Shown one piece after another: positions 19,576-53,355 of a stretch of 64,000 bases of DNA. The first letter of the stretch is position 1. Each line of letters begins with the position of its first letter. This stretch comes from an uncultured Candidatus Saccharibacteria bacterium. Lineage in GTDB: Bacteria; Patescibacteriota; Minisyncoccia; Phycocordibacterales; UBA1550. Below the pieces are notes generated by a model that saw only the letters and a program-made list of their open reading frames with translations, had not been told where the DNA came from and searched no databases. The stretch is from NCBI GenBank assembly GCA_964642305.1, contig CAZXOE010000001.1, positions 58,917 to 122,916 of the forward strand. Direction: 5' to 3'. The position numbers and the translations under genes were made by a program.

Positions 19576-19616
19576 CCGACTTCTTGAGTCGTGCTCTTTA
19601 CCACATCAGCGTTCAA

Positions 19617-19675: not shown

Positions 19676-19719
19676 AACTATGAAGTTTAAATAGGTAATA
19701 AGTATGATTGTGGGTTTTA

Positions 19720-20304: not shown

Positions 20305-20318
20305 TCATAAATTCTATC

Positions 20319-20367
20319 ACACCTCCCAATAATAAGGTAGCGGTCGCTACCTTATTATTGGAGGGTG
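20319..20367. repeat. family-1 long palindrome, copy b (CACCTCCCAATAATAAGGTAGCG gtc GCTACCTTATTATTGGAGGGTG)
   Basis: Shares the core CCAATAATAAGGTAGCG..CGCTACCTTATTATTGG with copy a. Sits immediately upstream of the PaaX-like gene start. Confidence 0.8.
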
Positions 20368-20428
20368 AGTAAGTTGATAATTAAATACTTATTATAAATA
20401 ATAATAAATAATATTTTTCTAACCTAAA

Positions 20429-20974: not shown

Positions 20975-20976
20975 CT

Positions 20977-21555
20977 CTACCTAAGCGTTACTGTCGTGCG
21001 AAGCGAATCTTCGTATGTCCAATCGCTACTCTCTGCATTGTATCTCATTGTCATCAGTACCTGAACCGCTGTAGTAGTGGCAAGAAGCACTGAGTTGTAG
21101 TTTTCAATACGTGTAAACGTTGGCACATCCACTGTAACATAGCTTCCAGTAACAGCATCCGGCGCGCCGGCATTAACCTTTCGACGCAGAGTCCCGTCCA
21201 ACATATCGTAAAAAATAGTATCCCCTGACACAGTGAGCGACAGCGTGCTACCTGGAGCGCCAAGCGTGGGCGCAGAAATAGCTGTGGCATTCTTTACATC
21301 CTGCTTGATGAGCTCGCCTGCAAAGCGAATCGCGGAGTTTATCTCGCTCCGCGCTTCTGACTGCCCGCGTCCCTTTGAAAGCATTATAAACGCGTCAGAA
21401 ACAATCACCATAAGACCGGACAAGAGAGCAATGTAAATCAGAAGCTCCAGGAGAGAGATACCGCGAGTACGCGAACAACTTACAACTGACAACTTACAAC
21501 TTACAACTGACCCAAAAATACTATTCGATGCTTTTGTTAAATATTTTCTATTCAT
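20977..21555 (-). CDS. prepilin-type N-terminal cleavage/methylation domain protein (pseudopilin)
   Basis: RTRG|ISLLELLIYIALLSGLMVIV is a class-III signal peptide with Glu5. The track start at 21561 is a TTG; the ATG is at 21555 (MNRKYL...). An in-frame TTG gives the shorter leader MSVVSCSRTRG. Five GT(A/C)AGTT heptamers lie within the leader-coding region. Confidence 0.75.
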   Translation of the reverse strand: MNRKYLTKASNSIFGSVVSCKLSVVSCSRTRGISLLELLIYIALLSGLMVIVSDAFIMLSKGRGQSEARSEINSAIRFAGELIKQDVKNATAISAPTLGAPGSTLSLTVSGDTIFYDMLDGTLRRKVNAGAPDAVTGSYVTVDVPTFTRIENYNSVLLATTTAVQVLMTMRYNAESSDWTYEDSLRTTVTLR

Positions 21556-21632
21556 AGTCAATTATCACTCTTGTTCTTATTGTATCTTGTATTCTGTTAG
21601 TTGTCAGTTGTTTGTCGTTAGTTGTTCTCCCA

Positions 21633-30036: not shown

Positions 30037-30789
30037 TTATTGGAGTTTAATTGATCCACCTGTCGTATCTATCTCCGTGCCGATTGGGCCAATGGATTCA
30101 TCGCCGGTGCCTGTCCACGATGTTTGATTTGTGACTTTGTTCCTCCAGCGAATGAAGTAGTCGCTAATTGTCACGGGGCTTCCCGACCCCTGCCACGATA
30201 CAGTAACAGTAACTTTTTGTGTGGATGGATCAAACGCGCCAGTGCTTGTTGTGCAGGTGGTTGCTGTACCGTCTGTGTCGGTAATACCAGTAACATTTCT
30301 CACGCCTGCCGTTGTGTCGCGACAAATATTTTGGACTACAATATACCTCGTAAAACTTCCAGTATTGAGGGCGATGAGCTCGCTTCCTGTGGATGTCGCC
30401 CACTTGGTGCCAGACTGAGTAAAGTGATACTGCGAACCCTTTGTAAGATCATAAATATTTTGCCACTTTTCGTCCGCTACAGAGCGCGACTGCTCTAGCG
30501 CCTCACCAGCAAGACCCATAGCAGTATCGCTCTCGCCTGAAACCTTTCCGCTTTGCATACTCACAAACACCGACTGCGCGCCGATGGAAAGTATAACCGC
30601 GAGGATTGATGTTACAATAAGAAGCTCCAGAAGTAGCGCTCCTTTTTGGGAGGAATGTGGAAACTTATAAGAAGCCTCCAGTTGTTTGCCATATTTGTCA
30701 TAATATTTTTTGAATGATGGATTTTTTAATTTATTCTCCAAATATTTCTGAAAATCAAATGTATACTTCTTTTTATTTATTTCCTCCAT
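30037..30789 (-). CDS. pilin-like protein with unusually long (50 aa) leader before a prepilin-type helix
   Basis: SSQKG|ALLLELLIVTSILAVILSIGA. ATG at 30789 verified (ATGGAGGAA). No in-frame alternative start lies closer to the cleavage motif. Confidence 0.6.
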   Translation of the reverse strand: MEEINKKKYTFDFQKYLENKLKNPSFKKYYDKYGKQLEASYKFPHSSQKGALLLELLIVTSILAVILSIGAQSVFVSMQSGKVSGESDTAMGLAGEALEQSRSVADEKWQNIYDLTKGSQYHFTQSGTKWATSTGSELIALNTGSFTRYIVVQNICRDTTAGVRNVTGITDTDGTATTCTTSTGAFDPSTQKVTVTVSWQGSGSPVTISDYFIRWRNKVTNQTSWTGTGDESIGPIGTEIDTTGGSIKLQ

Positions 30790-30807
30790 ATTTTATATTG
30801 TACTCTA

Positions 30808-30835
30808 TTGACACATTTTTTGTTAGGTGTATACT
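30808..30835 (+). promoter_or_regulatory. sigma70-like hexamers TTGACA-16 nt-TATACT on plus strand
   Basis: ctattgacaCATTTTTTGTTAGGTGtatact. There is no plus-strand gene downstream, only the hairpin at 30853..30893. It may be fortuitous or drive a tiny RNA. Confidence 0.25.
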
Positions 30836-30852
30836 GTGCACATCACCACGAA

Positions 30853-30893
30853 AAGTCCCCCGTAGGGTTCCGTACCTATGGGGTCCTTTTTTT
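30853..30893. terminator. hairpin GUCCCCCGUAGG-loop-CCUAUGGGGUCC followed by T7 on plus (A-run/UUUU on minus); terminator at the 3' end of the NYN gene region
   Basis: 12-bp stem with one mismatch and one GU pair, then ttttttt at 30887..30893. On the minus strand the stem is followed by UUUUCG. Confidence 0.45.
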
Positions 30894-31379
30894 ATATTCT
30901 AGTTTGTCTTTTAATTCATTCATAAAATCCAATTGTTTACGTCCAAATCTCTTCAAAAGCGCTGAATATTTAAAATAGTTTGGAATAATAACTCGCTCAA
31001 ATTTATTTTTTTCTATAAGGTATTGTATTAGGCAATAAAAATCTCCATCGCCAGTTACAATCACAGCTTTGTCGTAGTTTGGGTATTCTATCATTGCGCG
31101 AAGCACCAACTCGGCATCACAATTACCCTTTGTCGTGCCATCCTTATATTCAAGCGTAGGCTTGAATATACAAAGGAACCCTGCTGATTGTAAGGAGAGG
31201 TATAAATCATTATTACTTTCAACGTAACCAACAAATAAAAAGGCCTTCTTTACACCATATCTTTCTCTAAGATGGACACGAAAACGAGCAAAGTCCAATT
31301 TCCACCCGAGCGAACGGATGGCCAAATTCACATTTTGGCTATCAATGAATGCGTAATTATTCCTAGAAATTTTTTCCAT
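30876..31379 (-). CDS. NYN-domain (LabA-like) putative RNase
   Basis: YAFIDSQNV...DAELVLRAM...AVIVTGDGDFYCL carries the acidic residues of the PIN-like NYN fold. Sits inside the pilus gene string. Confidence 0.75.
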   Translation of the reverse strand: MEKISRNNYAFIDSQNVNLAIRSLGWKLDFARFRVHLRERYGVKKAFLFVGYVESNNDLYLSLQSAGFLCIFKPTLEYKDGTTKGNCDAELVLRAMIEYPNYDKAVIVTGDGDFYCLIQYLIEKNKFERVIIPNYFKYSALLKRFGRKQLDFMNELKDKLEYKKRTP

Positions 31380-31381
31380 AT

Positions 31382-31828
31382 CTAGTATATCGTTCCGATA
31401 GCTGAAACAGTCGTTGTTGCTGTTGTGTCCTCTAGAGTAACGCTCGTTGTGGTTGCTGTGGGTATTGTGCCGGTGATTTTGTTGAAAATTATTTCCTTGT
31501 ACCCCGATGCTGGGTCAGAAAATGTGACACCAGATGAAAGTGTGGTTGTGGCAGTGGTTGTGGAGTTTGTACCGTCTGTTGAGAATGTAATGTAATAGTC
31601 CCCTTGAGCGTCCTTCACAAAGCGTACGCCCCATTTGTATCCGCTCTCCCCTGCCATTGACTTTGCGCGCATCTGTCGCAAGTCGCTCGCAATTATTTTT
31701 GAAGTAGACTGAAGCTCCACATTTTTTGCAAACCCTCTATAAAACCCTGCTCCAATGGCAGCAAGAATTGCCATAATCGCGATTACAATTAGCAGTTCCA
31801 GAAGCGAAAATCCGCGAGAATTTTTCAT
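31382..31828 (-). CDS. type IV pilin / pseudopilin (prepilin-type N-terminal methylation domain)
   Basis: MKNSRG|FSLLELLIVIAIMAILAAIGA is a classic class-III signal with Glu5. Thr-rich C-terminus. Confidence 0.8.
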   Translation of the reverse strand: MKNSRGFSLLELLIVIAIMAILAAIGAGFYRGFAKNVELQSTSKIIASDLRQMRAKSMAGESGYKWGVRFVKDAQGDYYITFSTDGTNSTTTATTTLSSGVTFSDPASGYKEIIFNKITGTIPTATTTSVTLEDTTATTTVSAIGTIY

Positions 31829-31830
31829 AC

Positions 31831-33048
31831 TTATGTGAAGTGCCCAACAAGCTGATAAATTGGCAAAATGATTGAGAATGCAATAGAACCAACAAGGAGC
31901 CCCATTATCAATAGCAATATTGGCTCTAGCACAGCAGTGAGGCCCTTGAGTTTGTTGTCAACATCCTCTTCGTAGAAATCTGAAAATGTAATGAGAATTT
32001 CAGAAAGGCTTCCTGTGCGTTCACCCACAATAACAAGGCTCACGAGAAGTCTAGGAAAGAGCTCTGGAAATTTTGCGATCGCGTCCGAAATCGAGAGTCC
32101 GTTTTTCACATTATCAACAATCGCCTTGATTGCTATTTCATATTTTTGATTACCAATAGACTGGGCTGCGGATTCTAGCGAACCCACAGCAGAAAGCCCA
32201 CTCGCCATCAGATTGCCCAATGTGCGCGTAAAACGCACGAGCGCAACTTTTTTTATTAGCTCGTTCGCGACAGGGATATGAGATATGAGAAAGAAAAAGA
32301 ATTTCTTACCCATATTTGTTTTTCTGAAGTATAGGAAAAACCAAACTGTGAAAAAAAGAATTATGCCGTCCAAAATAAAACTATATGTGAGCATTCCCGA
32401 CAGCCCGAGAAAGAACTTTGTTACCCATGGAAGTTCCACTCCGCTGGACGCAAAAGCTTTAGTAAGACGCGGGAGCACAAAGATGAGCAAGAGCGACACA
32501 ACACCAATAGATGCGACGAGAAGGATTATCGGGTATGTAAGCGCGCTCTTTACCTTTGCGCGAAGAGCGTACTCTTTTGAAAGATACTGCCCGAGCTCTG
32601 TGAGCGTGCGTTCAAGCTGGCCAGAAGCCTCGCCCGCGCGAAGCATACCCAGAAATACTGGTGGAAATTGATTTGCAAAGTTCGCAAATCCAGCAGAAAG
32701 CGGTTGCCCGTTTTTTACCAATGCCTGCACCTCCCTCAAGATATTTTTCATCATCTTTTTTTCTGTGTCTGCAATCAGAATATCCAGAGCCTCCACCACA
32801 GAGAGCCCTGCCTTTACAGTCGCCGAGAGATTGCGTACCAAAAACAAAATATCAACAGAAGTAACTTTTTCAAAAAGTGAAATAGATAAATCTAAACCTC
32901 TCTTGCCTCCGCGAAGCGCCTCGACAGAAATAGGGGTTAGGTCGCGCCTAAGCAAATACTGCACAACCTCCTCGCGTGTTAGAGCTTCGTACTCGCCTCG
33001 TACTATTGCCCCGTCTTTATTGTAAACTTCGTAAATAAATATGCTCAT
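31831..33048 (-). CDS. pilC: type IV pilus assembly platform protein PilC (T2SS F family)
   Basis: Two GspF-type repeats, 3 TM helices, 405 aa; adjacent to pilB. Confidence 0.9.
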   Translation of the reverse strand: MSIFIYEVYNKDGAIVRGEYEALTREEVVQYLLRRDLTPISVEALRGGKRGLDLSISLFEKVTSVDILFLVRNLSATVKAGLSVVEALDILIADTEKKMMKNILREVQALVKNGQPLSAGFANFANQFPPVFLGMLRAGEASGQLERTLTELGQYLSKEYALRAKVKSALTYPIILLVASIGVVSLLLIFVLPRLTKAFASSGVELPWVTKFFLGLSGMLTYSFILDGIILFFTVWFFLYFRKTNMGKKFFFFLISHIPVANELIKKVALVRFTRTLGNLMASGLSAVGSLESAAQSIGNQKYEIAIKAIVDNVKNGLSISDAIAKFPELFPRLLVSLVIVGERTGSLSEILITFSDFYEEDVDNKLKGLTAVLEPILLLIMGLLVGSIAFSIILPIYQLVGHFT

Positions 33049-33136
33049 GATTTCTTATATGTGACCTTATCGTAATTATACAACAGTTTTTGTTTTTATT
33101 TGAATTTTTGCACCCAAACTTAGAGCGAGCGCACCT

Positions 33137-33248
33137 CTTTTTGACAGGGTCCGCAGGTGCTTTGCTTGGCTCGGGCGGTACCCCGCACGAAAAGCACCGA
33201 GGATTAGCGAGCCTTCCGCAGGAGAAGGCGTGGCGCCCTGTCAAAAAG
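33137..33248. ncRNA. 112-nt structured intergenic element between pilB and pilC (candidate cis-regulatory RNA or small ncRNA)
   Basis: Closing stem CTTTTTGACAGGG / CCCTGTCAAAAAG (13 bp). Internal hairpins: GGTGCTTT...AAAGCACC (enclosing GCGG-tacc-CCGC) and GCCTTC-cgcagga-GAAGGC. The sequence is GC-rich relative to its surroundings. Strand is undetermined. Confidence 0.35.
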
Positions 33249-33265
33249 ACGATGCCGAGCGACCT

Positions 33266-34984
33266 TTATTCGTTGACTACTCTAAGTATCTCCTCTATTG
33301 TTGTTACTCCGCGTTCCACCTTATCCAAACCATCTTCAAACATAGTTGTCATTCCATCATCTACCGCTTTTTTTCGTATCTCCCCTACGGTTGCCTCTCG
33401 GAGTATTAGCTCACGAATGGCATCAGTAACTCTGAACAATTCAAAAATACCAATCTGCCCCTGAAACCCAGAATTTCCGCACACCTTGCAACCGCGTCCG
33501 CGATAGAGAGTGTTTGGAATTGCTGAATCCTTGTTTCCAGAAAGCGCCATCTGCGCCTTAATAATACGCACAATCTCTGGGCTAGCAGGATAAGACTCTG
33601 TGCACGAGGAGCAAATGCGACGCACAAGACGCTGAGCGATTACAATATTTACAGTAGAGGAAAGCAAAAATGCCGGCGCGCCCATATCTAGAAGTCTTGG
33701 TAATGCAGAGGTTGCGTCGTTGGTGTGAAGAGACGACAATACAAGGTGCCCCGTAAGCGCGGCGTGGATAGCTATCTCAACCGTTTCATTGTCGCGAATT
33801 TCCCCTATCATAATAATGTCAGGGTTTTGACGAAGTAACGCGCGAAGGCCATTTGCAAATGTAATTCCGGCCTTTGGATTTACTTGAGTTTGATTAACGC
33901 GAGGAAATTCATATTCAACAGGATCCTCAATGGTAGTGATGTTAACAGATGGAGTATTAAGTATTTGAAGTATTGCATAAAGCGATGTTGTCTTGCCGTG
34001 ACCTGTGGGGCCAGTAACAAGGATCATTCCATGGGGTTTTTTAATTTCATTTTGAAGTATCGCTATGCCATCGTTTGAAACTCCAAGATCCTTGAGGGTA
34101 AGCGGGCGCGCGGCTCCTTTCAAAATACGCATTTCAACTTTTTCTCCATGAAAGACAGGCATTATATTTACACGCACATCTACAGAACCGCCATCTTCCA
34201 TATCAAAACGAAAACGACCATCTTGAGGAACGCGATGCTCGTCTATTTGCATTCCAGCGAGGATTTTCACGCGCGCGACAAGCACAGGGGCGATAGTTTG
34301 CGGCAAGCTAACGATCTCCTGCATAATTCCGTCAATGCGATAACGCACAAGGAGTTCCTTGTCCAGAGGTTCAAAATGAATATCAGACGAGTTTAGAGAA
34401 ACTGCGTGATCAATAACATTGTCTAGTATACTAACGATTGGCACTGCGGCAGCGAGCTTTGCGACATCTGCATCTCCACTAACCGCGAGTGACTGCTCTA
34501 CGTTTTCGGAAATAATTTGATCAAAATTGATGCCTACTTTTTTCTTATACTGCTTGAGGCCATATCGCAAACTTGGAACCGTTGTAATGTATACGTCTAC
34601 CCATACATTTAGTTTTGCGCGCACGTATTCAATAGTTTCGTAATCAAATGGGTCAAGCATTGCAAGCTTTGCGCGACCTTGCTTTTTGTCGTAATCAAAC
34701 AAAACTACATTTTTTGCTTTAGCATACGCTTCTGGAATGAGCGCAAGCACGTCTGGGTTGATGGTTTCCGAACCCTCTTTTTTAAGATTAATTATTGGCG
34801 TGCCATAATACGGACTCAAAAGCTCTGCAAAATAATCCTCGGGAATTTTCCCTCTTCCTATTAAAATATTTTGGATAGACTGCCCAGAACGACGAGACTC
34901 TTCCACAGCAACACCAAAATCCTCATCAGTCACAAGTCCCGACTCAATTACAATCTCTTTTAATTTCTCTTTTGCGATGTGCAT
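33266..34984 (-). CDS. pilB: type IV pilus assembly ATPase PilB (GspE family)
   Basis: Walker A LVTGPTGHGKTT, Asp box, His box, C-terminal tetracysteine (CSSC...CKVC); N-terminal GspII_E-like domain. Confidence 0.9.
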   Translation of the reverse strand: MHIAKEKLKEIVIESGLVTDEDFGVAVEESRRSGQSIQNILIGRGKIPEDYFAELLSPYYGTPIINLKKEGSETINPDVLALIPEAYAKAKNVVLFDYDKKQGRAKLAMLDPFDYETIEYVRAKLNVWVDVYITTVPSLRYGLKQYKKKVGINFDQIISENVEQSLAVSGDADVAKLAAAVPIVSILDNVIDHAVSLNSSDIHFEPLDKELLVRYRIDGIMQEIVSLPQTIAPVLVARVKILAGMQIDEHRVPQDGRFRFDMEDGGSVDVRVNIMPVFHGEKVEMRILKGAARPLTLKDLGVSNDGIAILQNEIKKPHGMILVTGPTGHGKTTSLYAILQILNTPSVNITTIEDPVEYEFPRVNQTQVNPKAGITFANGLRALLRQNPDIIMIGEIRDNETVEIAIHAALTGHLVLSSLHTNDATSALPRLLDMGAPAFLLSSTVNIVIAQRLVRRICSSCTESYPASPEIVRIIKAQMALSGNKDSAIPNTLYRGRGCKVCGNSGFQGQIGIFELFRVTDAIRELILREATVGEIRKKAVDDGMTTMFEDGLDKVERGVTTIEEILRVVNE

Positions 34985-35083
34985 TGCCTTTATATTATAT
35001 CATGCAAAAAATAAATATGCTCTGTGTATAACCATACAGCGTACATATACGGCAACCAAGTGGCCCACAAATAGCCGATAAAC

Positions 35084-35123
35084 CACAGCTATCCCCATTT
35101 TCTACCTATAGGTAGAAAATGGG
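35084..35123. repeat. family-2 palindrome copy 1 (CTATCCCCATTTTCTACC tata GGTAGAAAATGGGGATAG)
   Basis: Perfect 18-bp arms. Further copies at 35733..35772 and 38113..38154. Copies 1 and 2 bracket the PaaX-like paralog. Confidence 0.8.
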
Positions 35124-35151
35124 GATAGTGAACGGCATACTATACGCTCAA

Positions 35152-35703
35152 TTACGAGAGTCCGAAGTACTCCTTAAGCTTGCCCACACCTTCGATCTCT
35201 TTTGCCTTAATATAAATGATGTGGTCTCTTACTCCGAAAAATTCTCCGACGAAATCAATTTCGTTCTTACAAAGATATGGCGACACAAAAACAGATTTCT
35301 GAATCGGATATAGTCCAAGGTCTTTTATCTTTCGACTTACTGCGCTCCGTGCTAGTTTTTTCGACTCTGGAATATCAAACATCACAATGCGCCAAAAGCC
35401 ATCCCATTTTTTTGGCGTCTTAAGCTTCATATCATCAAGGTTGTATTCAAGAACTTTTTTCTTGCCTGCTTTTGTTATTTCCACAACTTCATTACCATTA
35501 TGTGTATAAATATTTATTAACTTCTTTTCATGAAGCCCTTTAATTGCCCTCTTAACGCGATACCTATCCCGCGCGCTTTCTGGTTTAAATAAAGGAACGA
35601 TTTTTGTGAGTCCAGGCATAGCAAGGCACGCAACAAGAAATCCGCCGAGTGCTAGACCTATTAATATCTCTTTGGCAAGCTCTCCATTTTTATAATCCTT
35701 CAT
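35152..35703 (-). CDS. PaaX-family-like transcriptional regulator paralog
   Basis: Same architecture as 19720..20304: hydrophobic N-term (ILIGLALGGFLVACLAM), wHTH-like segment (AIKGLHEKKLINIYTHNGNEVVEITKAGKKKVL), and WDGFWRIVMFDIPE...IQKSVFVSP. Confidence 0.55.
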   Translation of the reverse strand: MKDYKNGELAKEILIGLALGGFLVACLAMPGLTKIVPLFKPESARDRYRVKRAIKGLHEKKLINIYTHNGNEVVEITKAGKKKVLEYNLDDMKLKTPKKWDGFWRIVMFDIPESKKLARSAVSRKIKDLGLYPIQKSVFVSPYLCKNEIDFVGEFFGVRDHIIYIKAKEIEGVGKLKEYFGLS

Positions 35704-35732
35704 AATATATACTCATGTACTATTGTATCATA

Positions 35733-35772
35733 CTATCCCCAAATTCTACCTATAGGTAGAAAATGGGGATAG
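35733..35772. repeat. family-2 palindrome copy 2 (CTATCCCCAAATTCTACC tata GGTAGAAAATGGGGATAG)
   Basis: Two arm mismatches relative to copy 1. Confidence 0.8.
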
Positions 35773-35816
35773 TATGACACCAGAATATATTACTTTGAAT
35801 TACTAAACTCTGGTTT

Positions 35817-35910
35817 CTCGTCATTGTGAGAAAGTACTCTTGCGAAGCAACCCAGTGTTTCTCGCGCATAATCCTGGATTGCTTCACTTCGCTCGCAAAG
35901 ACAATGCAGG
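35817..35910. repeat. imperfect-palindromic MITE/REP-like element, copy A
   Basis: gtcattgtgag...gcgaagcaacccag...ctggattgcttcac...gctcgcaaagacaatg; arms pair (cattgt/acaatg, gaagcaacccag/ctggattgcttc). Related copy at 39753..39829. Confidence 0.6.
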
Positions 35911-36010
35911 AATATTGGAGTTTCGTAATTCAAGGTATATTAGGTGGCGAAATATATCAACTGAATACTATTATCCAAATTGAATCCGATGTTCTCATTA
36001 ACAAACAAAC

Positions 36011-36715
36011 CTAGAGCTTGAGGAGCGGGTAGAGATTTAGGGCGGTGAGGATTGGAATGGCGTAGATTAACGCGACTGGAGACGCGAGAAGAAATGATGG
36101 AGGGAGAGGGATGCGTTCAATACCGTAAATGAAGCGAGCACCGATTGAGAGTAAAATTGCAGAAATAAGCCCTATAGGCAAAAGCACAATGACTCCGGGC
36201 CACCCAGAAATAAGCATTGCAAGCACGATTAGCATAATATCCCCTTCCCTAAAATTGATTGGGTGTGTTTTAGAACGCACTATAAGGAATAGCAAAAACA
36301 ACCCTACAACAATGAGTAACGCAATAGTGCTTAAGAAAAAATGTTGAAATGAATAGAACGCAAAGTATCCATTGGGTCCATCAAACAAAGGACGAAGAAA
36401 TTCAAAGTACGACGGAAACGGGACTTCTTTTGTAAGCGGTGATGAAAGAAATACTTTTGTAAACTCACTCTTGCTCCACACAATATACTGTCCACAGGTG
36501 GCAACTATGCCATATAAAATGTGCAGTCCTATAGCAATACCAGCTAGCCAATTATATGAAATGTTTTTTACCCAAAGCGGGCGCATATAACGAACAGCAA
36601 CAATAAAAAAGAATATTGTCCAAACAACCAATTCAATTGTATTTAGGTTTGCGAAGATGAAATTTAACAACATATTGGGCCGAATATTGAATATAAGATT
36701 TAGATATATTAACAA
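36011..36715 (-). CDS. polytopic membrane protein, A24 prepilin-peptidase-like (GDxxL motif); possible PilD/TadV analogue
   Basis: Six or more TM helices. FREGDIMLIVLAMLISGWPG resembles the second catalytic Asp motif (GDVKLLAALG) of type IV prepilin peptidases. The first Asp motif is not evident. Confidence 0.45.
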   Translation of the reverse strand: MLIYLNLIFNIRPNMLLNFIFANLNTIELVVWTIFFFIVAVRYMRPLWVKNISYNWLAGIAIGLHILYGIVATCGQYIVWSKSEFTKVFLSSPLTKEVPFPSYFEFLRPLFDGPNGYFAFYSFQHFFLSTIALLIVVGLFLLFLIVRSKTHPINFREGDIMLIVLAMLISGWPGVIVLLPIGLISAILLSIGARFIYGIERIPLPPSFLLASPVALIYAIPILTALNLYPLLKL

Positions 36716-36807
36716 AAAACTACCTCCTGCGCCAATTTTGTTTTGGTTTTTTCCATAGGTTTAACCTATGGAAACTTTTGGACGTTGGACGTCCAAGAAT
36801 AATTGGC

Positions 36808-37020
36808 TCAATAAAAGCCGTGCAAGCGCTCATGAGCCATTCGTGACATTATCCAGAGATTACTCTTCCTAAAATTTCTTTTATTACCATCTATATGGTG
36901 AACAACCATCCCTGGGAAAATTCTCCCACCGACCATATTGGCCGCTACGGTTCTATGAACCAGGATATTGCTGTCTTTCCATCTAGGATATCCTTTTTTA
37001 TCTATATATTTATTATCCAC
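36808..37020 (-). CDS. small HNH endonuclease
   Basis: VHHIDGNKRNFRKSNLWIMSRMAHERLH is an HNH motif with an His-Asn...His triad. 70 aa. Confidence 0.7.
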   Translation of the reverse strand: MDNKYIDKKGYPRWKDSNILVHRTVAANMVGGRIFPGMVVHHIDGNKRNFRKSNLWIMSRMAHERLHGFY

Positions 37021-37073
37021 AGTTTTGGTACCCTACACTAAAATACTGATTATGTCAAGTCGTGCGTAATGGT

Positions 37074-38112: not shown

Positions 38113-38154
38113 ACTATCCCCAAATCCTACCTATAGGTAGGATTTGGGGATAGT
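38113..38154. repeat. family-2 palindrome copy 3 (ACTATCCCCAAATCCTACC tata GGTAGGATTTGGGGATAGT, perfect)
   Basis: Arm differences relative to copies 1 and 2 are compensatory (AAATC/GATTT versus ATTTT/AAAAT). Confidence 0.8.
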
Positions 38155-40659: not shown

Positions 40660-43143
40660 TTAGTTTGTTCCGTTCATTTTAGCATGTTCAGAAATATCAG
40701 CAACCTTTGTTGTCAAAGGAACCGTAAAGAAAAATGTTGAGCCTTGCCCTTCGGCAGTGTCAAACCAAATCTTTCCACCCCATGACTCCACGAGCTCCTT
40801 TACCAAAGCAAGTCCTAAACCAGAGCCGTCTGGCACCTGTGAACGAGCGTTTTCCGCGCGGAAAAACTTTGAAAAAATACGAGGTCTGTCCCTTTCTGGG
40901 ATACCAATACCATTGTCGTGAACCATATACACAACCTCCCTACCCTCATCACCCATCCACCATTTTATTTCAATGAGGCCCTTCTCGTTTGTGTAACGAA
41001 TTGCATTAGAAACAAGATTTAGAACAACCTGACGCAGTGTGAGAGAGTCTAGCCAGACGATCACTGACTCACGGTCAGGCGGAATCACAGAGAGCGACAG
41101 ACTCTTCATATCAATCTGCGACCTTAACTCCTTTGTAATTTCGTTTGTAAACGCGCCAACGTCTATTGGCGTCCTTTCCATTTTGAGCTTCCCGCTTTCA
41201 ACGCGCGAAATACCGAGCAACAAGTCTACTGTTTGATACAAACGTTCCGCGCCCCCGTGGATCTCATTCATAAAATCTTTTTGCGAATCATTAAGTGGCC
41301 CCGCGTCTTGCGATAAGAGCATTTCTGAATACCAGCGAATAGAAGTGAGCGGCGTACGAAGCTGATGTGAAGCAACAGATATGAAGCCGGACTTTGCCTC
41401 ATCTAGCTCGCGATCTCGCGTTGCGTCACGGAAAATTATAACGACACCAGCATTTTCAACACCCAATGGCGCAAACGAAAAGACTATCGGGATTCTCTCT
41501 GGGTGCTTTTCTGTGGAAAGAGAAATGTTGTCCTCAAGTGTTCCAGTGATGATTTTTTTTGTTAATAATACTTCCTCTATAGGCCACGAACTTGGCGGTA
41601 TCACATCCTTGTTCTTTCTCCACAGCGTCACAATAGAGCGCAAATCCTGCCCAAGTAGTTCACTTTCTGTCATCCCAAACATTCGCGATGCAGTGGGGTT
41701 TACTAGAGCCACGTGATACGAACCATCTATAAGAATAAGTCCATCTCCAATAGACGAAATAATAGTTTGCAGTTTGTTGCTCTCTTCTGCAAGCGCCTCC
41801 TTTGCCTTCCACGAATCCTCAAGTAAATTAAGTGTCGCCCTTTTTGACTCCTCAAGAAATTGCTCTTGCTTCTTGTGCTCCTCCACGTCTTTTTCAAGAG
41901 CTGTTGATTTCTCTTCTAGCACAACCATAGATTCGCTCAATGCCTTTTGACTGGCGCGAATCGACCCAACCATTGTGTTGAACATAACAGAAAGGTCTCC
42001 AATTTCATCTTTACTTTTTACATCAACCAAAACATTCAGATCGCCATCGGTAACACGTTTTGCGACCCGAACAATATTATCCAAATGCGAAAGCGGGCGT
42101 CGAACAAAAAATATCGCAATTAGCAAACCAGAAACAACCACTGTGATACCGCCTGCGATAGTCGCGCGGGTAAGAGTAGCAAGTGGAGCAAAAATTTCAT
42201 CTTGGTGCACCTCTACCAAAAGCACTAGACCCTTATCCTTGAAACACATCGAGGCGCCGAGTACGCGAATTCCTTGATAATTTTCGTACTCCTCGCTTAT
42301 TTCTTTTCCGTTATCAAGACATTCTAGCACAGGCAATGTCTCAACCTTTTGCTTAAGTTGTACATTTTTCATAAAACGCGAGGGCGTGACCATTGTATAA
42401 TCACGATTCACAAAATACATATCGGAGGTTTTGTAACTTTCAAGAAATGCCTGCCTTGAAACACGGCTAATTGTTTTAATATCTATTTCCCTTTCTCCTA
42501 TACCAAGCGAGTCTGCAATCTCATTTGTATTATCAAAGTAAACAAGAAGCACTGCATCTATAGGACTGAATTCATTGCTCCCAATGGGCTCCGAAAGTCT
42601 CACAGTGGCGCTAACATACGGTTTAGAACTTTCGTATCCAAACTCCATACCGCTAAAATAAACCTCGTTTTGAGATGAGTTGATCGTACTAGCAAAATTG
42701 TGTATCTTGCGTCCACTAACCTCCTCGTTTGCCTCGTCCTTGCCAATACGGCCTGGTTGGGTTGAAGCTATAACTACGCCATTTTTATCCAACAAATCTG
42801 TGACAATAATCGTACTATCATAAGGCATCTTTTTTTCGCGAATATATTTCGCAAATTCACTTGCATAACGCGAACGCTCTAACGACCCATCGGGGGTAAG
42901 AATTAATTTTTTTGATAGCTCTTGGATTGTATTGTCCGATGTCCAGCCCACAACACGTTTTTTCATTCCGCCCAAATATGAGAGATAAATGCCTTCGCTT
43001 TGTTCTGCAATTGTTCGAAAATTGTGCTGTGTTTGTTTTTTGAATGCACCGATTACAGAATAATCAATATATAGTACAATTGTAGATGTAACTGCAACAA
43101 AAAATATTATAAAGAAGATGGAAGTTTTTGTACGAAGCTTCAT
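40660..43143 (-). CDS. sensor histidine kinase with extracytoplasmic sensing domain, HAMP, two PAS domains, HisKA, HATPase_c
   Basis: Paralog of 519..2858 (NFRTIAEQSEGIYLSYLGGMKKRVVGWTSD vs NLRIIAEQSESAYLAFLGTMKTRVIDWTSD). H-box VASHQLRTPLTS, G-boxes DNGIGIP / GSGLGLALV. Start set at the ATG at 43143 (MKLRTKTSIFF), in frame with the track start at 43173. Confidence 0.9.
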   Translation of the reverse strand: MKLRTKTSIFFIIFFVAVTSTIVLYIDYSVIGAFKKQTQHNFRTIAEQSEGIYLSYLGGMKKRVVGWTSDNTIQELSKKLILTPDGSLERSRYASEFAKYIREKKMPYDSTIIVTDLLDKNGVVIASTQPGRIGKDEANEEVSGRKIHNFASTINSSQNEVYFSGMEFGYESSKPYVSATVRLSEPIGSNEFSPIDAVLLVYFDNTNEIADSLGIGEREIDIKTISRVSRQAFLESYKTSDMYFVNRDYTMVTPSRFMKNVQLKQKVETLPVLECLDNGKEISEEYENYQGIRVLGASMCFKDKGLVLLVEVHQDEIFAPLATLTRATIAGGITVVVSGLLIAIFFVRRPLSHLDNIVRVAKRVTDGDLNVLVDVKSKDEIGDLSVMFNTMVGSIRASQKALSESMVVLEEKSTALEKDVEEHKKQEQFLEESKRATLNLLEDSWKAKEALAEESNKLQTIISSIGDGLILIDGSYHVALVNPTASRMFGMTESELLGQDLRSIVTLWRKNKDVIPPSSWPIEEVLLTKKIITGTLEDNISLSTEKHPERIPIVFSFAPLGVENAGVVIIFRDATRDRELDEAKSGFISVASHQLRTPLTSIRWYSEMLLSQDAGPLNDSQKDFMNEIHGGAERLYQTVDLLLGISRVESGKLKMERTPIDVGAFTNEITKELRSQIDMKSLSLSVIPPDRESVIVWLDSLTLRQVVLNLVSNAIRYTNEKGLIEIKWWMGDEGREVVYMVHDNGIGIPERDRPRIFSKFFRAENARSQVPDGSGLGLALVKELVESWGGKIWFDTAEGQGSTFFFTVPLTTKVADISEHAKMNGTN

Positions 43144-43252
43144 GGCGTTTAATAAATGATGTACTGTTAACAACTATTGTAGCATGCAAAGAATTATCTT
43201 GGTATACTATTTGAGTACAAACATGTGACATTTAACCATTGACATGTGACTC

Positions 43253-43279
43253 GCAGATTTTCGCGAAGCGAAAATCTGC
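43253..43279 (+). promoter_or_regulatory. hairpin GCAGATTTTCGC gaa GCGAAAATCTGC with flanking inverted TGACA(A/T)TT repeat arms, upstream of pilM
   Basis: Same palindrome as 20884..20914. Arms at 43220..43250 (ACATGTGACATTTAACCATTGACATGTGAC) and 43280..43311 (TGTCAATTGTCAAATGTTAATTGTCAATTGTC). A related arm sequence also occurs at 7717..7749. Confidence 0.5.
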
Positions 43280-43319
43280 TGTCAATTGTCAAATGTTAAT
43301 TGTCAATTGTCCCAAATCA

Positions 43320-44834
43320 ATGAACCTATTAAGCCTACTTACAAAAGAAAAGCGCGTAGCTGGAATTGAGATCAGCGACTCTGTTGTTCGTGTTGCTTTT
43401 TTAAATACAAATCTTAAGAAGAAAAACCAAGTTACCATAAAACCAAAGGATGATAATATGGGGAATGAAAATACTAGTGTTTCATCAGAAAATAATGAGG
43501 ATTACGAACTTATTCTTATTGAGGAGCCTATTGCATCAAATATAATTGCCGATGGTGTGGTAATTGACATTGATCTTCTTGCAAACACACTAAAGAAAAT
43601 ATGGGAAAAGGCAAACCTTGGCACAGACTATGCTATTGTTGCAATCCCTGACGACAAAATATACTCAAGAATTTTTTCATTTCCAAAGTCAGTCACAGAT
43701 GAGCGCTTAAACGAGGCGATGCGTCTCGCTATCAGTTTTCAAATACCTATAAAAATTGAAGACGCGTATCTAGACTGGGAACGCACAAAGGGAACAAATA
43801 CTACAAATGAGATCTTGCTCTCAACGATTCCACGCAAAGTCGCAGAGGGTTATGTGCAAGCGCTTGAGAGAGCCGGTATTAAAACACTCGCTCTTGAAAG
43901 TCATCTAGCGGGGATCTCTCGTTCCGTAAAGCTTGAAGACGGTGTTACAACTATTTTTCTAAAAAAGACCCCTGACGGAGCGACAATCTTTGCCATCAGA
44001 GAGGGTGTCTTGCATTTTTCACGGACGCTCCCTCTTAGTTTTGTTCCTGAAGCAAATCTTCACAATGAAATTCAAAAAGTTAAAGATGCGATTGCGTCTG
44101 AAACAAAAGGAGAGATTAACGAGATAGAGCTTCTGAATGCAACAGTGTGTGACGAATATGCAAATCGCATGGAAATTTCAGAGCCAAAGTCAAAATGGCT
44201 TATTGCTCTTGGGTCAGCTATGCGCGGGAGAATCCCTGAAGGCAATGATAACCTGATCTCACTTTTGCCAGTTGGAACAGAAGAAGCATATTCGTACCAG
44301 CGCGCGACAACATTTATTGTGCTAATGAGAAACCTTATAATTAGCATTTCTATATTTTTTGTGTCTGTGTACACAATAGCGTATGTATCAATGCTATCAA
44401 TGTTGCAAAAGGGAGCCGAGCAAGTAACAACGCTGTCGGCAGGAGCCGTGCCACCAGAATTGGCTGAGAAAGAAAAACTGATAAAGGATGTGAACGCGAT
44501 TACTGAAACAGGAGCAATATTCCTATCAGAGATGCCGATATGGAGCGCTGTGTTAACAGAACTCGTAGCGAGAACACCAGATGGAATCACAATCTCCGCA
44601 TTTTCAGCGCCCAATTTTACAGATAGGTTCTCTTTGGTCGGTAATGCACGGAGCAGGACAACGCTTAATAATTACAAAAAAACGTTGCAAGAATCAGAGA
44701 TGCTTTCTGACATTGAGCTCCCTTTAACAAATCTTGATAAAGAAGAGAATATACCATTCAGCATATCGTTTCGCTTGAAGGATCCTAGTACGCTATACTA
44801 TACTCAAGCGACTGAGAGAACTACAAATATATGA
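43320..44834 (+). CDS. pilM: type IV pilus assembly protein PilM fused to PilN-like C-terminal domain
   Basis: Actin-like ATPase N-term (VAGIEISDSVVRVAFL...), central TM (IVLMRNLIISISIFFVSVYTIAYV), PilN-like periplasmic tail. The track start at 43239 is a TTG inside the repeat element; the ATG at 43320 is preferred and 43293 is possible. Confidence 0.7.
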   Translation: MNLLSLLTKEKRVAGIEISDSVVRVAFLNTNLKKKNQVTIKPKDDNMGNENTSVSSENNEDYELILIEEPIASNIIADGVVIDIDLLANTLKKIWEKANLGTDYAIVAIPDDKIYSRIFSFPKSVTDERLNEAMRLAISFQIPIKIEDAYLDWERTKGTNTTNEILLSTIPRKVAEGYVQALERAGIKTLALESHLAGISRSVKLEDGVTTIFLKKTPDGATIFAIREGVLHFSRTLPLSFVPEANLHNEIQKVKDAIASETKGEINEIELLNATVCDEYANRMEISEPKSKWLIALGSAMRGRIPEGNDNLISLLPVGTEEAYSYQRATTFIVLMRNLIISISIFFVSVYTIAYVSMLSMLQKGAEQVTTLSAGAVPPELAEKEKLIKDVNAITETGAIFLSEMPIWSAVLTELVARTPDGITISAFSAPNFTDRFSLVGNARSRTTLNNYKKTLQESEMLSDIELPLTNLDKEENIPFSISFRLKDPSTLYYTQATERTTNI

Positions 44835-46895: not shown

Positions 46896-48557
46896 ATGTC
46901 TCATATGAAAAAAAATATTGAAACTGCGGAGACTATTCGCAAGGCCGGTTTTGAAGGCGAGATTATCTCCGATGTAGCGAATCTCATTAAATACGAAAAC
47001 GACACGAGCCTATTTGAGCTTCGTCCGGAACTCGCGGTCAAACCAAAAGACGTTTCTGATATTAAAAAATTAGTTTCCTTTGTTGCTGACAAAAAAGACG
47101 AGGACTCAACACTGTCTCTCACCGCTCGAGCTGCAGGAACAGGGATGGCAGGAGGCGCGCTCAACGACTCTATTATTGTAGATGTTGCAAACTTAAATCA
47201 TATTAAAAGTGCAAGTACTGAAAGAGTCGTTGTTGAGCCTGGTGTTTATTATCGCGATATGGATACTGAAACAAGAAAGCTTGGCGTTATTATGCCGTCA
47301 TTCCCCGCTTCGCGAAATCTGTGCGCAGTGGGTGGAATGGTAGGTACAAATGCGTCAGGCGAAATGACACTCTCTTATGGAAGCACCGAAAACTGGGTAA
47401 GGCGTCTTAAGGTTGTGCTTTCTGACGGTAATGAATACGAACTTGGGCCATTAACAGAGAGCGAGCTTGCTTTAAAGAAAAACATCAAAGGTTTTGAAGG
47501 AGAGATTTATCGTCGTATGCACGAGCTTGTTGAAGAAAATTACGACATAATTAAACGCGCAAAACCAAAGGTTTCAAAAAACTCCACAGGTTACGCTCTT
47601 TGGAATGTGTGGGACAGAAAAACCTTTGATCTTACAAAGCTATTCACTGGATCTGAGGGTACACTTGGGATTTTTACAGAAATTGAATTTGCTTTGATAA
47701 AACCAAAGGAACATCGTAAGCTAGTTGTGATATTTTTGACTGATTTTAACAAACTATCAGAGGTCGTCACGCAGGTGCTTAAACATAAACCAGAAACATT
47801 TGAATCGTACGACGATCACACGTTTCAATTTGCAATTCGTTTTTTCCCAGATATTGTGAAGTCACTAAAAACAGGGATAGTGAAGCTTGGGCTTTCATTT
47901 ATTCCTGAAGCATTTATGGTGCTACGTGGCGGGTTCCCAAAGCTTGTGCTCCTTGCTGAGTTTACAGGTGATACGGAGGAAGAAGCGATGGGAAAAGCAC
48001 AAATCGCGTATGACGACCTTAAACAATTCCGCGCGCAGATTGAGATAATGAAAACAGAAAAGGATGCTGAAAAGTTTTGGACAATACGACACGAAAGTTT
48101 CAATTTGCTTAGAAAGCACGGTGGAAAAGACAAGACTGCTCCTTTTATAGACGACATAATTGTTGCCCCAGAAAAGCTTCCAATGTTTTTACCAAAACTT
48201 GCCGAGGTGATGAAGGAGTACAAGCTTACATACACTATCGCTGGACACATTGGCGATGGTAATCTGCACATTATTCCCCTGATGAACCTAAGGAACGCTC
48301 GTGACCGCGATATTGTGATGGAGCTTTCACAAAAAGTATTTAACCTCGTGTTTGAATTTGGCGGTTCAATGTCAGCAGAGCACAACGATGGACTCGTTCG
48401 CACTGCGTACCTAAAACAGATGTATGGCGAAAAAATCTATCATTTATTTGAGGAAACAAAAAATATTTTTGACCCTAAAAATATTTTTAACCCTGGCAAA
48501 AAAGTTTATGGACACGACCTTGAATACATCAAGGAACATATTGATAAGGTGTACTAG
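46896..48557 (+). CDS. FAD-linked oxidase (GlcD / D-lactate dehydrogenase family; FAD_binding_4 + FAD-oxidase_C)
   Basis: FAD-binding PCMH region (TARAAGTGMAGGALNDSIIVD, GGMVGTNASG), C-terminal oxidase domain. 553 aa. Confidence 0.85.
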   Translation: MSHMKKNIETAETIRKAGFEGEIISDVANLIKYENDTSLFELRPELAVKPKDVSDIKKLVSFVADKKDEDSTLSLTARAAGTGMAGGALNDSIIVDVANLNHIKSASTERVVVEPGVYYRDMDTETRKLGVIMPSFPASRNLCAVGGMVGTNASGEMTLSYGSTENWVRRLKVVLSDGNEYELGPLTESELALKKNIKGFEGEIYRRMHELVEENYDIIKRAKPKVSKNSTGYALWNVWDRKTFDLTKLFTGSEGTLGIFTEIEFALIKPKEHRKLVVIFLTDFNKLSEVVTQVLKHKPETFESYDDHTFQFAIRFFPDIVKSLKTGIVKLGLSFIPEAFMVLRGGFPKLVLLAEFTGDTEEEAMGKAQIAYDDLKQFRAQIEIMKTEKDAEKFWTIRHESFNLLRKHGGKDKTAPFIDDIIVAPEKLPMFLPKLAEVMKEYKLTYTIAGHIGDGNLHIIPLMNLRNARDRDIVMELSQKVFNLVFEFGGSMSAEHNDGLVRTAYLKQMYGEKIYHLFEETKNIFDPKNIFNPGKKVYGHDLEYIKEHIDKVY

Positions 48558-48617
48558 GAAGCAAGTAAAAATGCCCAGCCACACTAGTGTGGCTGGGCAT
48601 TTTTACTTGCTTCCTAG
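48554..48617. terminator. 64-bp perfect palindrome (CTAGGAAGCAAGTAAAAATGCCCAGCCACAC tag GTGTGGCTGGGCATTTTTACTTGCTTCCTAG) between convergent genes
   Basis: Overlaps both stop codons (the oxidase ends at 48557 and nirK ends at 48614). Internal TTTTT/AAAAA runs make it a bidirectional terminator. Confidence 0.6.
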
Positions 48618-49858
48618 TGTCCCATCTTTTCTGTCATTTCTGGCGTAGGAATTACGCCCTCATATATTTCTTTATTCTCTGAGCCAGTAACACTTATGAC
48701 CCCCCATGCTCCGCGATCAAGACGCGCGAGCGCGTGATCAACGAGGATATAGTTGCCTGGAACATCGAATTTCATCTCAACGATTGCGGCACCTCCAGCT
48801 GGAACTATCGTTGTCTGCACATTTTCAAAAATCGCAGAATTAGGACCCATGGCCGCCTCTGGATATACTCTGTCAAAAATTTCACCAATCACATGAAATG
48901 ATGAGATAAGATTAACTCCGCCATTCCCTACATAAATGCGCGCTGTCTCTCCTACTTTTGCCGACATATTCCCAACAGTACCTTTCACACGACCGTTGAA
49001 TACGATGTACTCCGGATGTCCGTCAAGAAGCTTGTGAGCATCCATAATCTGAAGACCCTTTGTACCCATTTTACCACTTGGATAAAATTCTCCCTGCACC
49101 ACGTAGAATTCCTTATCAACCTTTGGAAGACCCTCTTTTGGCTCAACCAATATGAGTCCGTACATACCATGCGCCATGTGGTTCCCCACATTTGCATGCG
49201 CGCAGTGATAAATATAAAGGCCAGGGTTAAGCATCTTAAAGCTCGCCTTTTTTGTCTCGCCAGGAGCAATGTTTGTCACTACAGCTCCACCTCCAGGGCC
49301 AGTTACAGCGTGGAAATCTATATTATGTGGAGCAACACTCGTGAGATCGTTCGTGATAGTTAAATCAATGGTGTCCCCTTCACGTACGCGCACCATAGGG
49401 CCTGGAACTGTTCCGTTAAAAGTCCAGTAATCTATAAAAACACCTGGAGCAATTTCAGAAATAATATCCTTTGTGACTAAGTCAAGTTTTACACGAGCTG
49501 GTTCCGTGCGGTTGATTGGAGGGGGGACATCGTTTGGGTCGCGGGCAATATCAGATGCTCGCTCAATAGTTTTAAATTTCTTAAAAAAATCAGTGATGTT
49601 TGCAAGCGGTAGCGAGGGATTGGCGCCTGGTCCGTACGTCGTTATTCCAAATGGATATTCAAGTTGATTTGGAAACGCGCGGGGAGAAAAAACGAATACC
49701 ACGATACCAAAAAATACAACAGAAAGCCATATTGCAGTCTTGAGTGAATGAATTTTGCGAAGAACAATAAAAATAAAAAGTCCACCAGCAGCGAGCGCTA
49801 TAAAGAAACCAAATGTTTGAAAAATGACAAACTTAGTAAAATAAAAAAATTCAATCAT
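48614..49858 (-). CDS. nirK: copper-containing nitrite reductase NirK (two-domain multicopper oxidase)
   Basis: Type-2 Cu site HNIDFHAVTGPGGG. Type-1 Cu ligands in YIYHCAHANVGNHMAHGMYGLILVEP (Cys-His-Met). N-terminal TM/signal anchor. Confidence 0.85.
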   Translation of the reverse strand: MIEFFYFTKFVIFQTFGFFIALAAGGLFIFIVLRKIHSLKTAIWLSVVFFGIVVFVFSPRAFPNQLEYPFGITTYGPGANPSLPLANITDFFKKFKTIERASDIARDPNDVPPPINRTEPARVKLDLVTKDIISEIAPGVFIDYWTFNGTVPGPMVRVREGDTIDLTITNDLTSVAPHNIDFHAVTGPGGGAVVTNIAPGETKKASFKMLNPGLYIYHCAHANVGNHMAHGMYGLILVEPKEGLPKVDKEFYVVQGEFYPSGKMGTKGLQIMDAHKLLDGHPEYIVFNGRVKGTVGNMSAKVGETARIYVGNGGVNLISSFHVIGEIFDRVYPEAAMGPNSAIFENVQTTIVPAGGAAIVEMKFDVPGNYILVDHALARLDRGAWGVISVTGSENKEIYEGVIPTPEMTEKMGH

Positions 49859-53327: not shown

Positions 53328-53355
53328 CAAACAGCGCCCAAATAGGCGCTGTTTT

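Follow-up and report, generated by a model that had tools for sequence, protein, structure and literature searches.

A heptamer-armed hairpin at pilM and pilin leaders of a Patescibacteriota bacterium, probably an ORF-less foldback insert

Why does one palindrome, set between inverted arrays of heptamers, stand in front of two separate type IV pilus genes? The question is raised by a 64-kb stretch of contig CAZXOE010000001.1 (43% GC; hereafter the window) from an uncultured Candidatus Saccharibacteria bacterium, whose proteins have homologues in organisms named as Yonathbacteria, Minisyncoccia or Parcubacteria. An identical hairpin precedes the pilM gene and a pseudopilin gene, and a sequence-only reading of this DNA had taken it for a conserved cis-regulatory module. 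The evidence collected here suggests instead that the hairpin is probably an open reading frame (ORF)-less, or 'miniature', foldback insert similar to the intervening sequences (IVS) of 23S rRNA, located in the leader of pilM and in the leader regions of pilins. The most plausible assignment is to a widespread, fast-turning-over and poorly understood family of inserts in which two inverted arrays of 7-nt repeats surround a variable center. On the best reading of the sequences, this center would be a PF05635 gene in the full-size form and, in the form seen in the window, a 12-14-bp GC-rich hairpin with a GCGAAGC tip.

Anatomy of the heptamer-armed modules

The 27-mer GCAGATTTTCGCGAAGCGAAAATCTGC (= GCAGATTTTCGC-GAA-GCGAAAATCTGC) is found exactly twice in the window, at 43253-43279 (+) and 20886-20912 (-), with none expected from 100 shuffles, and in the sense orientation of the gene that follows both copies have a GAA loop. 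The identity of the two palindromes and their common orientation were thus described correctly, as was their anatomy of a central perfect stem set in long imperfect inverted repeats of heptamers, since Tandem Repeats Finder (TRF) and an inverted-repeat search recover inverted, period-7 arms at both copies. The arm units are degenerate and follow the consensus NNNT[G/A/T]AC on the left and GT[C/T/A]ANNN on the right. A strict scan of the window for at least three successive units, (GTNANNN)>=3, detected 5 arrays compared to 0.64 per shuffle, and a general period-7 scan found arrays at only 6 places in the 64 kb, while periods of 8 and 9 gave none. There are four modules in the window, A to D, with arm complementarities of 73-88%; the sequence-only reading had counted three and overlooked site D.

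In site A, upstream of pilM, the left arm (ACATGTGAC ATTTAAC CATTGAC ATGTGAC; 43221-43250, +; TRF, period 7) forms an inverted repeat with 43281-43310 at 77% complementarity. The central hairpin (43253-43279, +) has a perfect 12-bp stem, a GAA loop and a GCGAAGC tip, and the right arm (TGTCAAT in 4.6 copies by TRF; 43280-43311, +) ends 8 nt before the pilM ATG at 43320. A spacing of 8-9 nt between right arm and ATG is also seen in loci L015, L057, L058 and L063. The site A sequence is identical in three independent assemblies (the window, L055 and L056).

Site B, on the reverse strand, begins on its sense strand with a left arm of AAATGAC and four AACTTAC units (20933-20969; 4.3 perfect copies by TRF), continues with a 14-bp stem around the 27-mer core (20884-20914) and ends with a right arm of GTCAGTG GTCTGCT GTCAGTG GTCAGTT (20855-20884; TRF and inverted repeats). 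The left arm comes after the ATG at 20974, which abuts the stop codon of the upstream gene, and the right arm lies upstream of the prepilin cleavage motif RSRG/VATLP (GGT at 20836-20834).

Site C (7717-7809, +) is situated between convergent genes, one with a SET domain and one that had been called a cohesin gene and matches only Big_13, a bacterial Ig-like domain. The arm at 7717-7749, previously described as a third copy of the arm sequence alone, is indeed present, but it is not alone: it is paired with a right arm at 7792-7809 around another hairpin (GAGGGTTTGCGC-GAA-GCGCAAACCCTC; 7756-7792) with a 17-bp stem, a GCGAAGC tip and A/T-rich shoulders, which differs from the 27-mer. In site D (21475-21626, -), upstream of the neighboring pilin, the left arm (21595-21626) and the right arm (21475-21511; TRF) enclose about 85 nt and no hairpin, and a promoter-like CTGACA-17-TACAAT begins in the left arm.

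Turnover at orthologous loci and in pilus clusters

Leaders of orthologous pilM genes differ strongly from that of the window. No element is present in L062 (PilM 65% identical to that of the window) or in L061 (64%). L058/L059 (76%) contain only ACATGTGAC joined to AATTGTC and then the same ccaaatcaATG, the window having an additional 74 nt in the middle. L057 (77%) has three left heptamers, where the window has four, and four right heptamers around a hairpin with the loop TCC, and in L060 (68%) the place is taken by a module whose GAATGNN/NNCATTC arms are unrelated. Two arm families are held within the L057 genome.

Differences of this kind extend to other pilus genes. In L015/L028/L001, which are syntenic with window 30113-37061 at ~80% nucleotide identity, a module 90.7% identical to site A is found, but before pilB and not before pilM. 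The gap between pilC and the major pilin gene, 2 nt in the window, is occupied by a module of ~150 nt in the same three loci and likewise in L031; the identical hairpin precedes both pilB and the major pilin in L015. L084 is a close relative with ~80% nucleotide identity over the pilin coding regions, and its site-D pilin clusters with that of the window at an amino acid identity of at least 90%. Sites B and D are nevertheless both replaced there by modules with GAAT-type arms that have neither the 27-mer nor a hairpin, and the borders of the modules (20840-20975 and 21474-21624 in the window) are precisely where the alignment breaks off. TGAC-type arms are also found in convergent intergenic spacers (site C, L002). 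Whole modules are proposed to be gained, lost or swapped at 5'-proximal hot spots, while the arms lengthen or shorten via heptamer slippage.

The comparison with L084 uncovers another difference. An 854-nt block (19575-20428) is missing from this relative, where the pseudopilin gene adjoins the MacB gene. In the window the block contains a PaaX_M/Cas2-like-domain gene (19720-20304, -) between long perfect palindromes (19617-19676 and 20326-20361) with the common core CCAATAATAAGGTAGC, and because it is absent from L084 it looks like an inserted cassette. A second arrangement of this type (35089-35703 with 38113-38154) consists of a paralogous gene upstream of pilB and another palindrome family (CTATCCCCAnnTnCTACC-TATA-).

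The sequence-only reading had itself named conservation in sister genomes as the test of its conserved cis-regulatory module, and in L058-L062 and L084 the element is absent, truncated or replaced. Absence, a stub or unrelated arms at orthologous promoters therefore speak against a conserved operator, one of the forms that had been suggested. A dedicated module of a pilus regulon, in which the hairpin or heptamers are bound by a regulator or an RNA switch coordinates pilM, pilB and pilin, is still suggested by the genomic distribution. In a count covering the window and five syntenic loci, in which orthologous sites are only partly independent of one another, 17/18 array sites fall into pilus or two-component clusters (81 kb) and 1 into the other 69 kb (p = 2.4e-4), so that the gathering of the modules at type IV pilus genes, as first noticed, is well founded. 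The presence of one hairpin in front of both pilM and a pseudopilin gene here, and in front of both pilB and the major pilin gene of L015, would fit a regulon, as would the GAA loop on the sense strand (5/5 GAA-loop copies), the constant 8-9 nt between right arm and ATG, and the adjoining sensor kinase and receiver genes. However, where close relatives share the promoter and the gene order, they have no module, only a stub, or unrelated arms, and one genome can hold two arm families. The same arms also surround PF05635 genes between unrelated genes (GT4/AsnB, YceG/kinase) and occur in convergent spacers, and the response regulators near pilM are receiver-only according to Pfam. The same clusters in relatives furthermore contain GIY-YIG, Y1-transposase and PF05635 genes, and a hot or permissive region for selfish inserts is therefore favored, and a pilus regulon is unlikely. 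Small GIY-YIG endonuclease genes are found at differing places of the two-component/pilM cluster (L058 6157-6441, L061 9580-9882) and are more evidence for such a gathering of selfish inserts.

Y1 transposases are also the enzymes that would mobilize a palindrome as single-stranded DNA if it were a repetitive extragenic palindromic (REP) or REPIN-type element served by a REP-associated tyrosine transposase (RAYT). Relatives do contain a Y1_Tnp (RAYT-like) gene upstream of pilB, and the window has more copies of GCGAAGC, a motif whose single-strand hairpin is classically very stable, than expected (18 vs 8.8). But in L058 it is another hairpin, CTTGGACGT-TGG-ACGTCCAAG, and not the 27-mer, that flanks the Y1_Tnp gene, and the window retains that other hairpin at 36778-36796 with no Y1 gene. 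In addition, the 27-mer has only two copies in 64 kb, a 25-mer search recovered only 2 contigs among 185,579 representative genomes, and REPs have no heptamer arms. This explanation is very unlikely, and REP/REPIN with RAYT was rejected on account of the different hairpin in L058. The REP-like hairpin TTGGACGT-TGG-ACGTCCAA stands on both sides of the Y1_Tnp gene in relatives (L058 2300-3200; L060 3025-3678), and window 36778-36796 is the orthologous place.

The 21-mer core of the hairpin recurs in metagenomes, in 52 contigs of which many are unrelated and high in GC, a distribution that may reflect a true family, a mobile core or chance recurrence of GCGAAGC-tipped hairpins. Heptamer-periodic flanks, of unrelated sequence, accompany 15 of 57 copies of the core compared to 34 of 1080 random positions. 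Scans of a viral collection gave 0 for the core and for three composition-matched controls alike and therefore had no power. The core also lies within two conserved multi-hairpin repeat families of high-GC organisms, one reading ...GATTTTCGCGAAGCGAAAATC-CTGGCGCCTCAAGGCGCCAT... (L005, L021, L026, L030, L038 and L050, high GC) and the other a triplet bordered on each side by AGGTTTTCGCC...GGCGAAAACCT hairpins (L024, L040, L042, L047 and L048).

Position within the leaders of pilM and the pilins

Site A occupies the spacer between the PilM-PilN fusion gene (43320-44834, +) and a divergent HAMP-PAS histidine-kinase gene (40660-43143, -; both assigned by Pfam). A putative extended -10 box of the pilM promoter (TGgTATACT; 43200-43208, +), not called by a simple -35/-10 scan, is conserved as GGTATACT in L057, L058/L059, L060 and L062. 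In L061 GGTATACT lies nearer its ATG with a rearranged spacer, and in L062 the box is only 14 nt from the ATG with no element in between. Transcription would start at ~43214-43217, 4-7 nt ahead of the left arm, and the conserved upstream box and the bare 14-nt leader of L062 together indicate that site A is the 5' leader of pilM, between box and ATG. The kinase gene has its own extended -10-like box (TGcTACAAT; 43176-43186, -) in a block, TTGTAGCATGC, that is conserved in all orthologues, and the element would lie outside its transcript.

The hairpins of sites A and B are in frame with the downstream gene and read QIFAKRKSA, which had been suspected of being a by-product. This suspicion is correct at pilM, where the reading is an artefact because the orthologues and the recorded protein, identical to the 504-aa PilM product of the window, start at ATG 43320. 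It does not extend to site B, where the module is likely translated.

Short leaders seem typical of the host. A Shine-Dalgarno (SD) motif precedes 0/42 called genes in two syntenic relatives (L061/L062), and a -10-like box lies ~5-14 nt from the ATG in several genes of these relatives and also at the pilB and pilC starts of the window (34984 and 33048). The host lineage, Parcubacteria of the candidate phyla radiation (CPR), is therefore SD-less and near-leaderless, and many of its mRNAs are likely leaderless or nearly so.

At pilin genes the modules overlap coding sequence, and the right arm supplies the ATG and the basic leader. The leader MSKVKC comes from the right arm GTCA(A/C)ATGTCAAA(A/G)GTCAAATGT in both L015 and L067, and the ATG of the next gene lies inside the last heptamer in L073. 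Orthologues of window pilin 38219-38944 in L057/L058 have four heptamers inside the leader peptide, which the window pilin and a further three orthologues lack. Sites B and D both lie between the upstream stop codon and the prepilin cleavage motif: the called product of site B starts at ATG 20974 (181 aa), and the right arm of site D is read within the leader of a pilin with the motif RTRG/ISLLELL, called as 192 aa from ATG 21555. Of the three reading frames upstream of the cleavage motif, the in-frame one has the longest ORF in 8/9 modules. From this we infer that modules B and D are translated and then discarded by prepilin peptidase, and as the extra residues would be removed, pilin 5' ends would be permissive landing sites.

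Alternatively, the overlap of arrays with start codons and leader peptides could point to a contingency locus, in which slipped-strand changes in heptamer number toggle pilin translation or tune leader structure and lead to phase-variable piliation. As 7 is no multiple of 3, every gain or loss of a heptamer would turn pilin translation on or off. In Haemophilus, tracts of heptamers ahead of adhesin genes are known phase-variation devices. The four perfect AACTTAC units of site B, the differing number of left heptamers in L057 and the window, and the strain-variable copy number in the Coxiella IVS (PMC4990558) agree with this possibility. Most units are degenerate, however, by which slippage is suppressed, site A is the same in all three assemblies, and relatives differ by wholesale replacement and not by unit number. 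A contingency locus is thus quite unlikely.

Folding predictions gave -46.1 kcal/mol (z -8.4) for site A and -51 kcal/mol (z -10.6) for site C, with z values of -4.1 for B and -5.8 for D. The predicted fold of site A is an interrupted stem-loop that ends 8-9 nt before the AUG. An RNA thermometer, another of the functions proposed from the sequence, or a translational riboswitch was rejected, as the AUG lies outside the stem, the lineage uses no SD motif and no Rfam match was found. The arms were also considered as sigma-70 promoters; their TTGACA units fit the -35 consensus, but usable -10 partners are found only inside site D.

An attenuator had been proposed as well, and intrinsic terminator or attenuator hairpins between transcription units would suit the place of site C between convergent genes, its A- and T-rich shoulders, the terminator-like character of site B on the antisense strand (and on this strand only), and a genome rich in long perfect hairpins at gene ends. 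Yet in the divergent spacer that holds site A a promoter lies upstream of the module, and no terminator-like site was called there on either strand. A GC stem with a sense-strand U-tract is found neither at A nor at B, a strict terminator scan called none at C, and the heptamer arms would be left unexplained, which makes terminators very unlikely and led to the rejection of this candidate. Very long perfect palindromes do occur at gene ends in the window (48553-48618, 3369-3409 and 53329-53354, with stems of 31, 19 and 10 bp). They have no obvious U-tracts, and the genome seems to punctuate gene ends with long perfect hairpins.

PF05635 genes, known repeat systems and a proposed insert class

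The arms of the window modules reappear in other genomes around a gene. A 128-aa ORF between pilB and pilC in L015/L001/L058 matches PF05635 (E = 5e-25) and is bracketed by TGAC-type arms. PF05635 is the 23S-rRNA-IVS protein, a four-helix bundle. Among CPR homologues of a single query, with L015/L001 and L058 counted as one insertion site, a TGAC-class array lies at most 40 nt upstream of the PF05635 ORF at 6/6 distinct sites, and an inverse array lies downstream of each, right before the next ATG or inside the next leader peptide. Only 2/42 ordinary genes have such arrays. The sites are pilB/pilC in L015/L001 and, at the same position, in L058 (Parcubacteria), GT4/AsnB in L063-66 (Uhrbacteria), T2SSE/pilin in L067/68 (Peregrinibacteria), an unnamed gene next to a pilin-like gene in L069, T2SSE/T2SSF in L071 and YceG/kinase in L073.

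Heptamer arrays likewise flank 9/9 cyanobacterial-plasmid PF05635 (four-helix-bundle) genes examined, several of which lie within operons (cas10/cmr3; cas6/cas4 twice). In ~5/9 of these cases the upstream and downstream arrays are clearly reverse complements of each other, and the units vary from copy to copy (CAGGAGT, GTAGGGA, AAAAGCT, GGGTGTA, GCAGAAG, AGGTGAC). In 50 kb of Nostoc punctiforme pNPUN01, arrays were found in only ~5/42 intergenic gaps; one array pair brackets a PF05635 gene, and three are ORF-less inverted pairs like those of the window.

The closest known counterpart is the 23S IVS with an S23p/PF05635 ORF, known from Coxiella burnetii and Leptospira (PMC4990558). In the Coxiella IVS, GACAGAT heptamers, 2-3 depending on the strain, immediately precede the S23p ATG; the terminal stem has 28 bp, and RNase III makes its 5' cut at the first heptamer (PMC4990558). 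Both IVS and modules form a long stem from terminal inverted repeats, vary in heptamer copy number, have a PF05635 ORF as the center in full-size relatives, and sit within a transcribed region that is not destroyed by the insertion. The tandem heptamers by the IVS ORF start are TGAC-class as in the CPR elements, since GACAGAT in another register reads AGATGAC. Insertions in CPR rRNA also contain 23S_rRNA_IVP ORFs (PMC11270868). The window modules differ from the IVS, which occupies helix 25 or 45 of 23S rRNA, in their location in an mRNA leader, operon junctions, pilin leader coding sequence and intergenic spacers. They furthermore have no ORF (only a short hairpin or ~85 nt) and longer arm arrays, and RNase III processing, known in Coxiella, is here inferred.

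A second point of comparison is the class of intergenic heptamer arrays, with degenerate tandem 7-nt units, a position 5' of starts and inverted pairs, into which the window modules fit. The short tandemly repeated repetitive (STRR) sequences of cyanobacteria were reportedly treated by Mazel in 1990, and Elhai is said to have described, in 2008, small dispersed repeats nested in heptamer contexts. Like the window modules, STRR and the inverted GGGAATC arrays of Xanthomonas (PMC4692102) are intergenic, degenerate and often arranged as convergent stem-loop pairs; their length and sequence differ between close relatives, and their function is equally unexplained. They differ from the window modules in unit sequence, and neither a PF05635 link nor a central GC hairpin is reported in those papers. 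The TAACTGA repeats of marine Beggiatoaceae, Cyanobacteria and Bacteroidetes (MacGregor 2015, PMC4679880) are patchily distributed across phyla, which suggests horizontal spread. Their unit nearly equals the left arm of site D (CAACTGA/CAACTAA), and their arrays end a few nt before start codons with no SD motif, as here. In Beggiatoa, however, arrays are nearly always single, direct and 'forward' (with one inverted case), whereas the window has inverted pairs around a center, with the gene-proximal array being the complement (PMC4679880). On pNPUN01 (L083, 43823-43860) an ATCAGTT/ATCAATT array, the complement of the Beggiatoaceae repeat, lies between convergent mobF and restriction-endonuclease genes.

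By analogy, the modules are also similar to foldback transposons and MITEs (miniature inverted-repeat transposable elements), with long inverted arms of short tandem repeats, a variable center, coexisting coding and non-coding versions, and presence or absence at orthologous sites. The comparison to eukaryotic foldback elements is an analogy from general knowledge and makes no claim of homology. No transposase and no target-site duplication was found for the modules, and the coding relatives encode PF05635. On these grounds, with the duplication sought between the window and L058, a MITE was rejected.

The long type IV pilus operon of the window runs on the reverse strand from pilB (33266-34984) and pilC (31831-33048) through pilins and pseudopilins down to 20429 (Pfam). 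It includes, immediately after the major pilin gene, a gene for an NYN-domain protein, a putative RNase (30876-31379). Between pilB and pilC, at the position of the PF05635 cassette in relatives, lies a ~110-nt GC-rich stretch (33100-33215) closed by the 13-nt inverted repeat CTTTTTGACAGGG...CCCTGTCAAAAAG, possibly a structured RNA, with no Rfam match at gathering level. Scans of the window for tRNAs and Rfam families gave no matches, including rRNA.

Taking the modules as ORF-less foldback inserts, a mode of tolerance can be proposed in which both spread and RNase III processing are putative. The insert would be transcribed as part of the host mRNA, and arms and hairpin would fold into an interrupted stem of ~45 bp, with 4-6-bp helices split by 2x2 internal loops and 8-9 free nt before the AUG. 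RNase III probably clips this stem as in the Coxiella 23S IVS, which would restore the short leader typical of the lineage. If left uncut, the stem could act as a protective 5' stem-loop. In pilin genes, the insert inside the leader-peptide coding region is probably translated, and prepilin peptidase would remove the extra residues.

Several results weigh against this interpretation. Folding energies of sense and antisense strands show no consistent bias across the modules, which leaves pairing at the RNA level without independent support. Covariation within an element, a check the sequence-only reading had called for, was not found beyond the heptamer consensus, as arms match no better within than between elements (p = 0.41). 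Cleavage of the modules by RNase III is argued by analogy only, and no RNase III gene or signature was found in the DNA examined. The window itself has no PF05635 gene by tblastn. The interior of site D has no similarity to PF05635 cassettes above shuffled controls, and site D as an internally deleted cassette was rejected accordingly. The CPR sample of PF05635 genes, being homologues of one query, has 4/6 of its sites in pilus operons. No target-site duplication appears between the filled site of the window and the minimal site of L058, no transposase or excision footprint of the modules was found, and the minimal L058 site could equally be a deletion. Finally, the enrichment in clusters and the GAA loop in sense orientation could mean function and not tolerance.

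A wider proposal is possible rather than probable. PF05635 genes and inverted heptamer arrays may together constitute one very broad class of IVS-like cassettes in CPR, Cyanobacteria, Coxiella and perhaps Xanthomonas and Beggiatoaceae, which insert not into rRNA alone but also, with precision, at operon junctions, in 5' leaders and in leader peptides that can be cleaved off, and are tolerated via clipping of the arm stem. STRR, TAACTGA and GGGAATC arrays and the hairpin miniatures of the window would then be ORF-less derivatives, and the Avd-like PF05635 protein would recognize or propagate the arms. The link between PF05635 and heptamer arrays, not made in the papers on Xanthomonas and Beggiatoaceae arrays, is the part most worth following.

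Among the long simple repeats of bacteria, heptamers are over-represented the most, and their origin and role are unexplained (PMC4679880, PMC4692102); PF05635 proteins are abundant and without known function. All PF05635 genes examined, from three CPR phyla and cyanobacteria, lie between heptamer arrays, and ORF-less forms occur in CPR pilus-gene leaders. If this were true genome-wide, three puzzles, namely the intervening sequences of rRNA, the heptamer arrays and the S23p family, would become one testable system. For CPR biology, the comparisons present the pilus operons, on which the episymbiotic lifestyle centers, as hot spots of rapidly exchanged 5' inserts, and they show that repeat DNA can supply pilin leader peptides and that annotated N-terminal extensions such as QIFAKRKSA derive from inserts.

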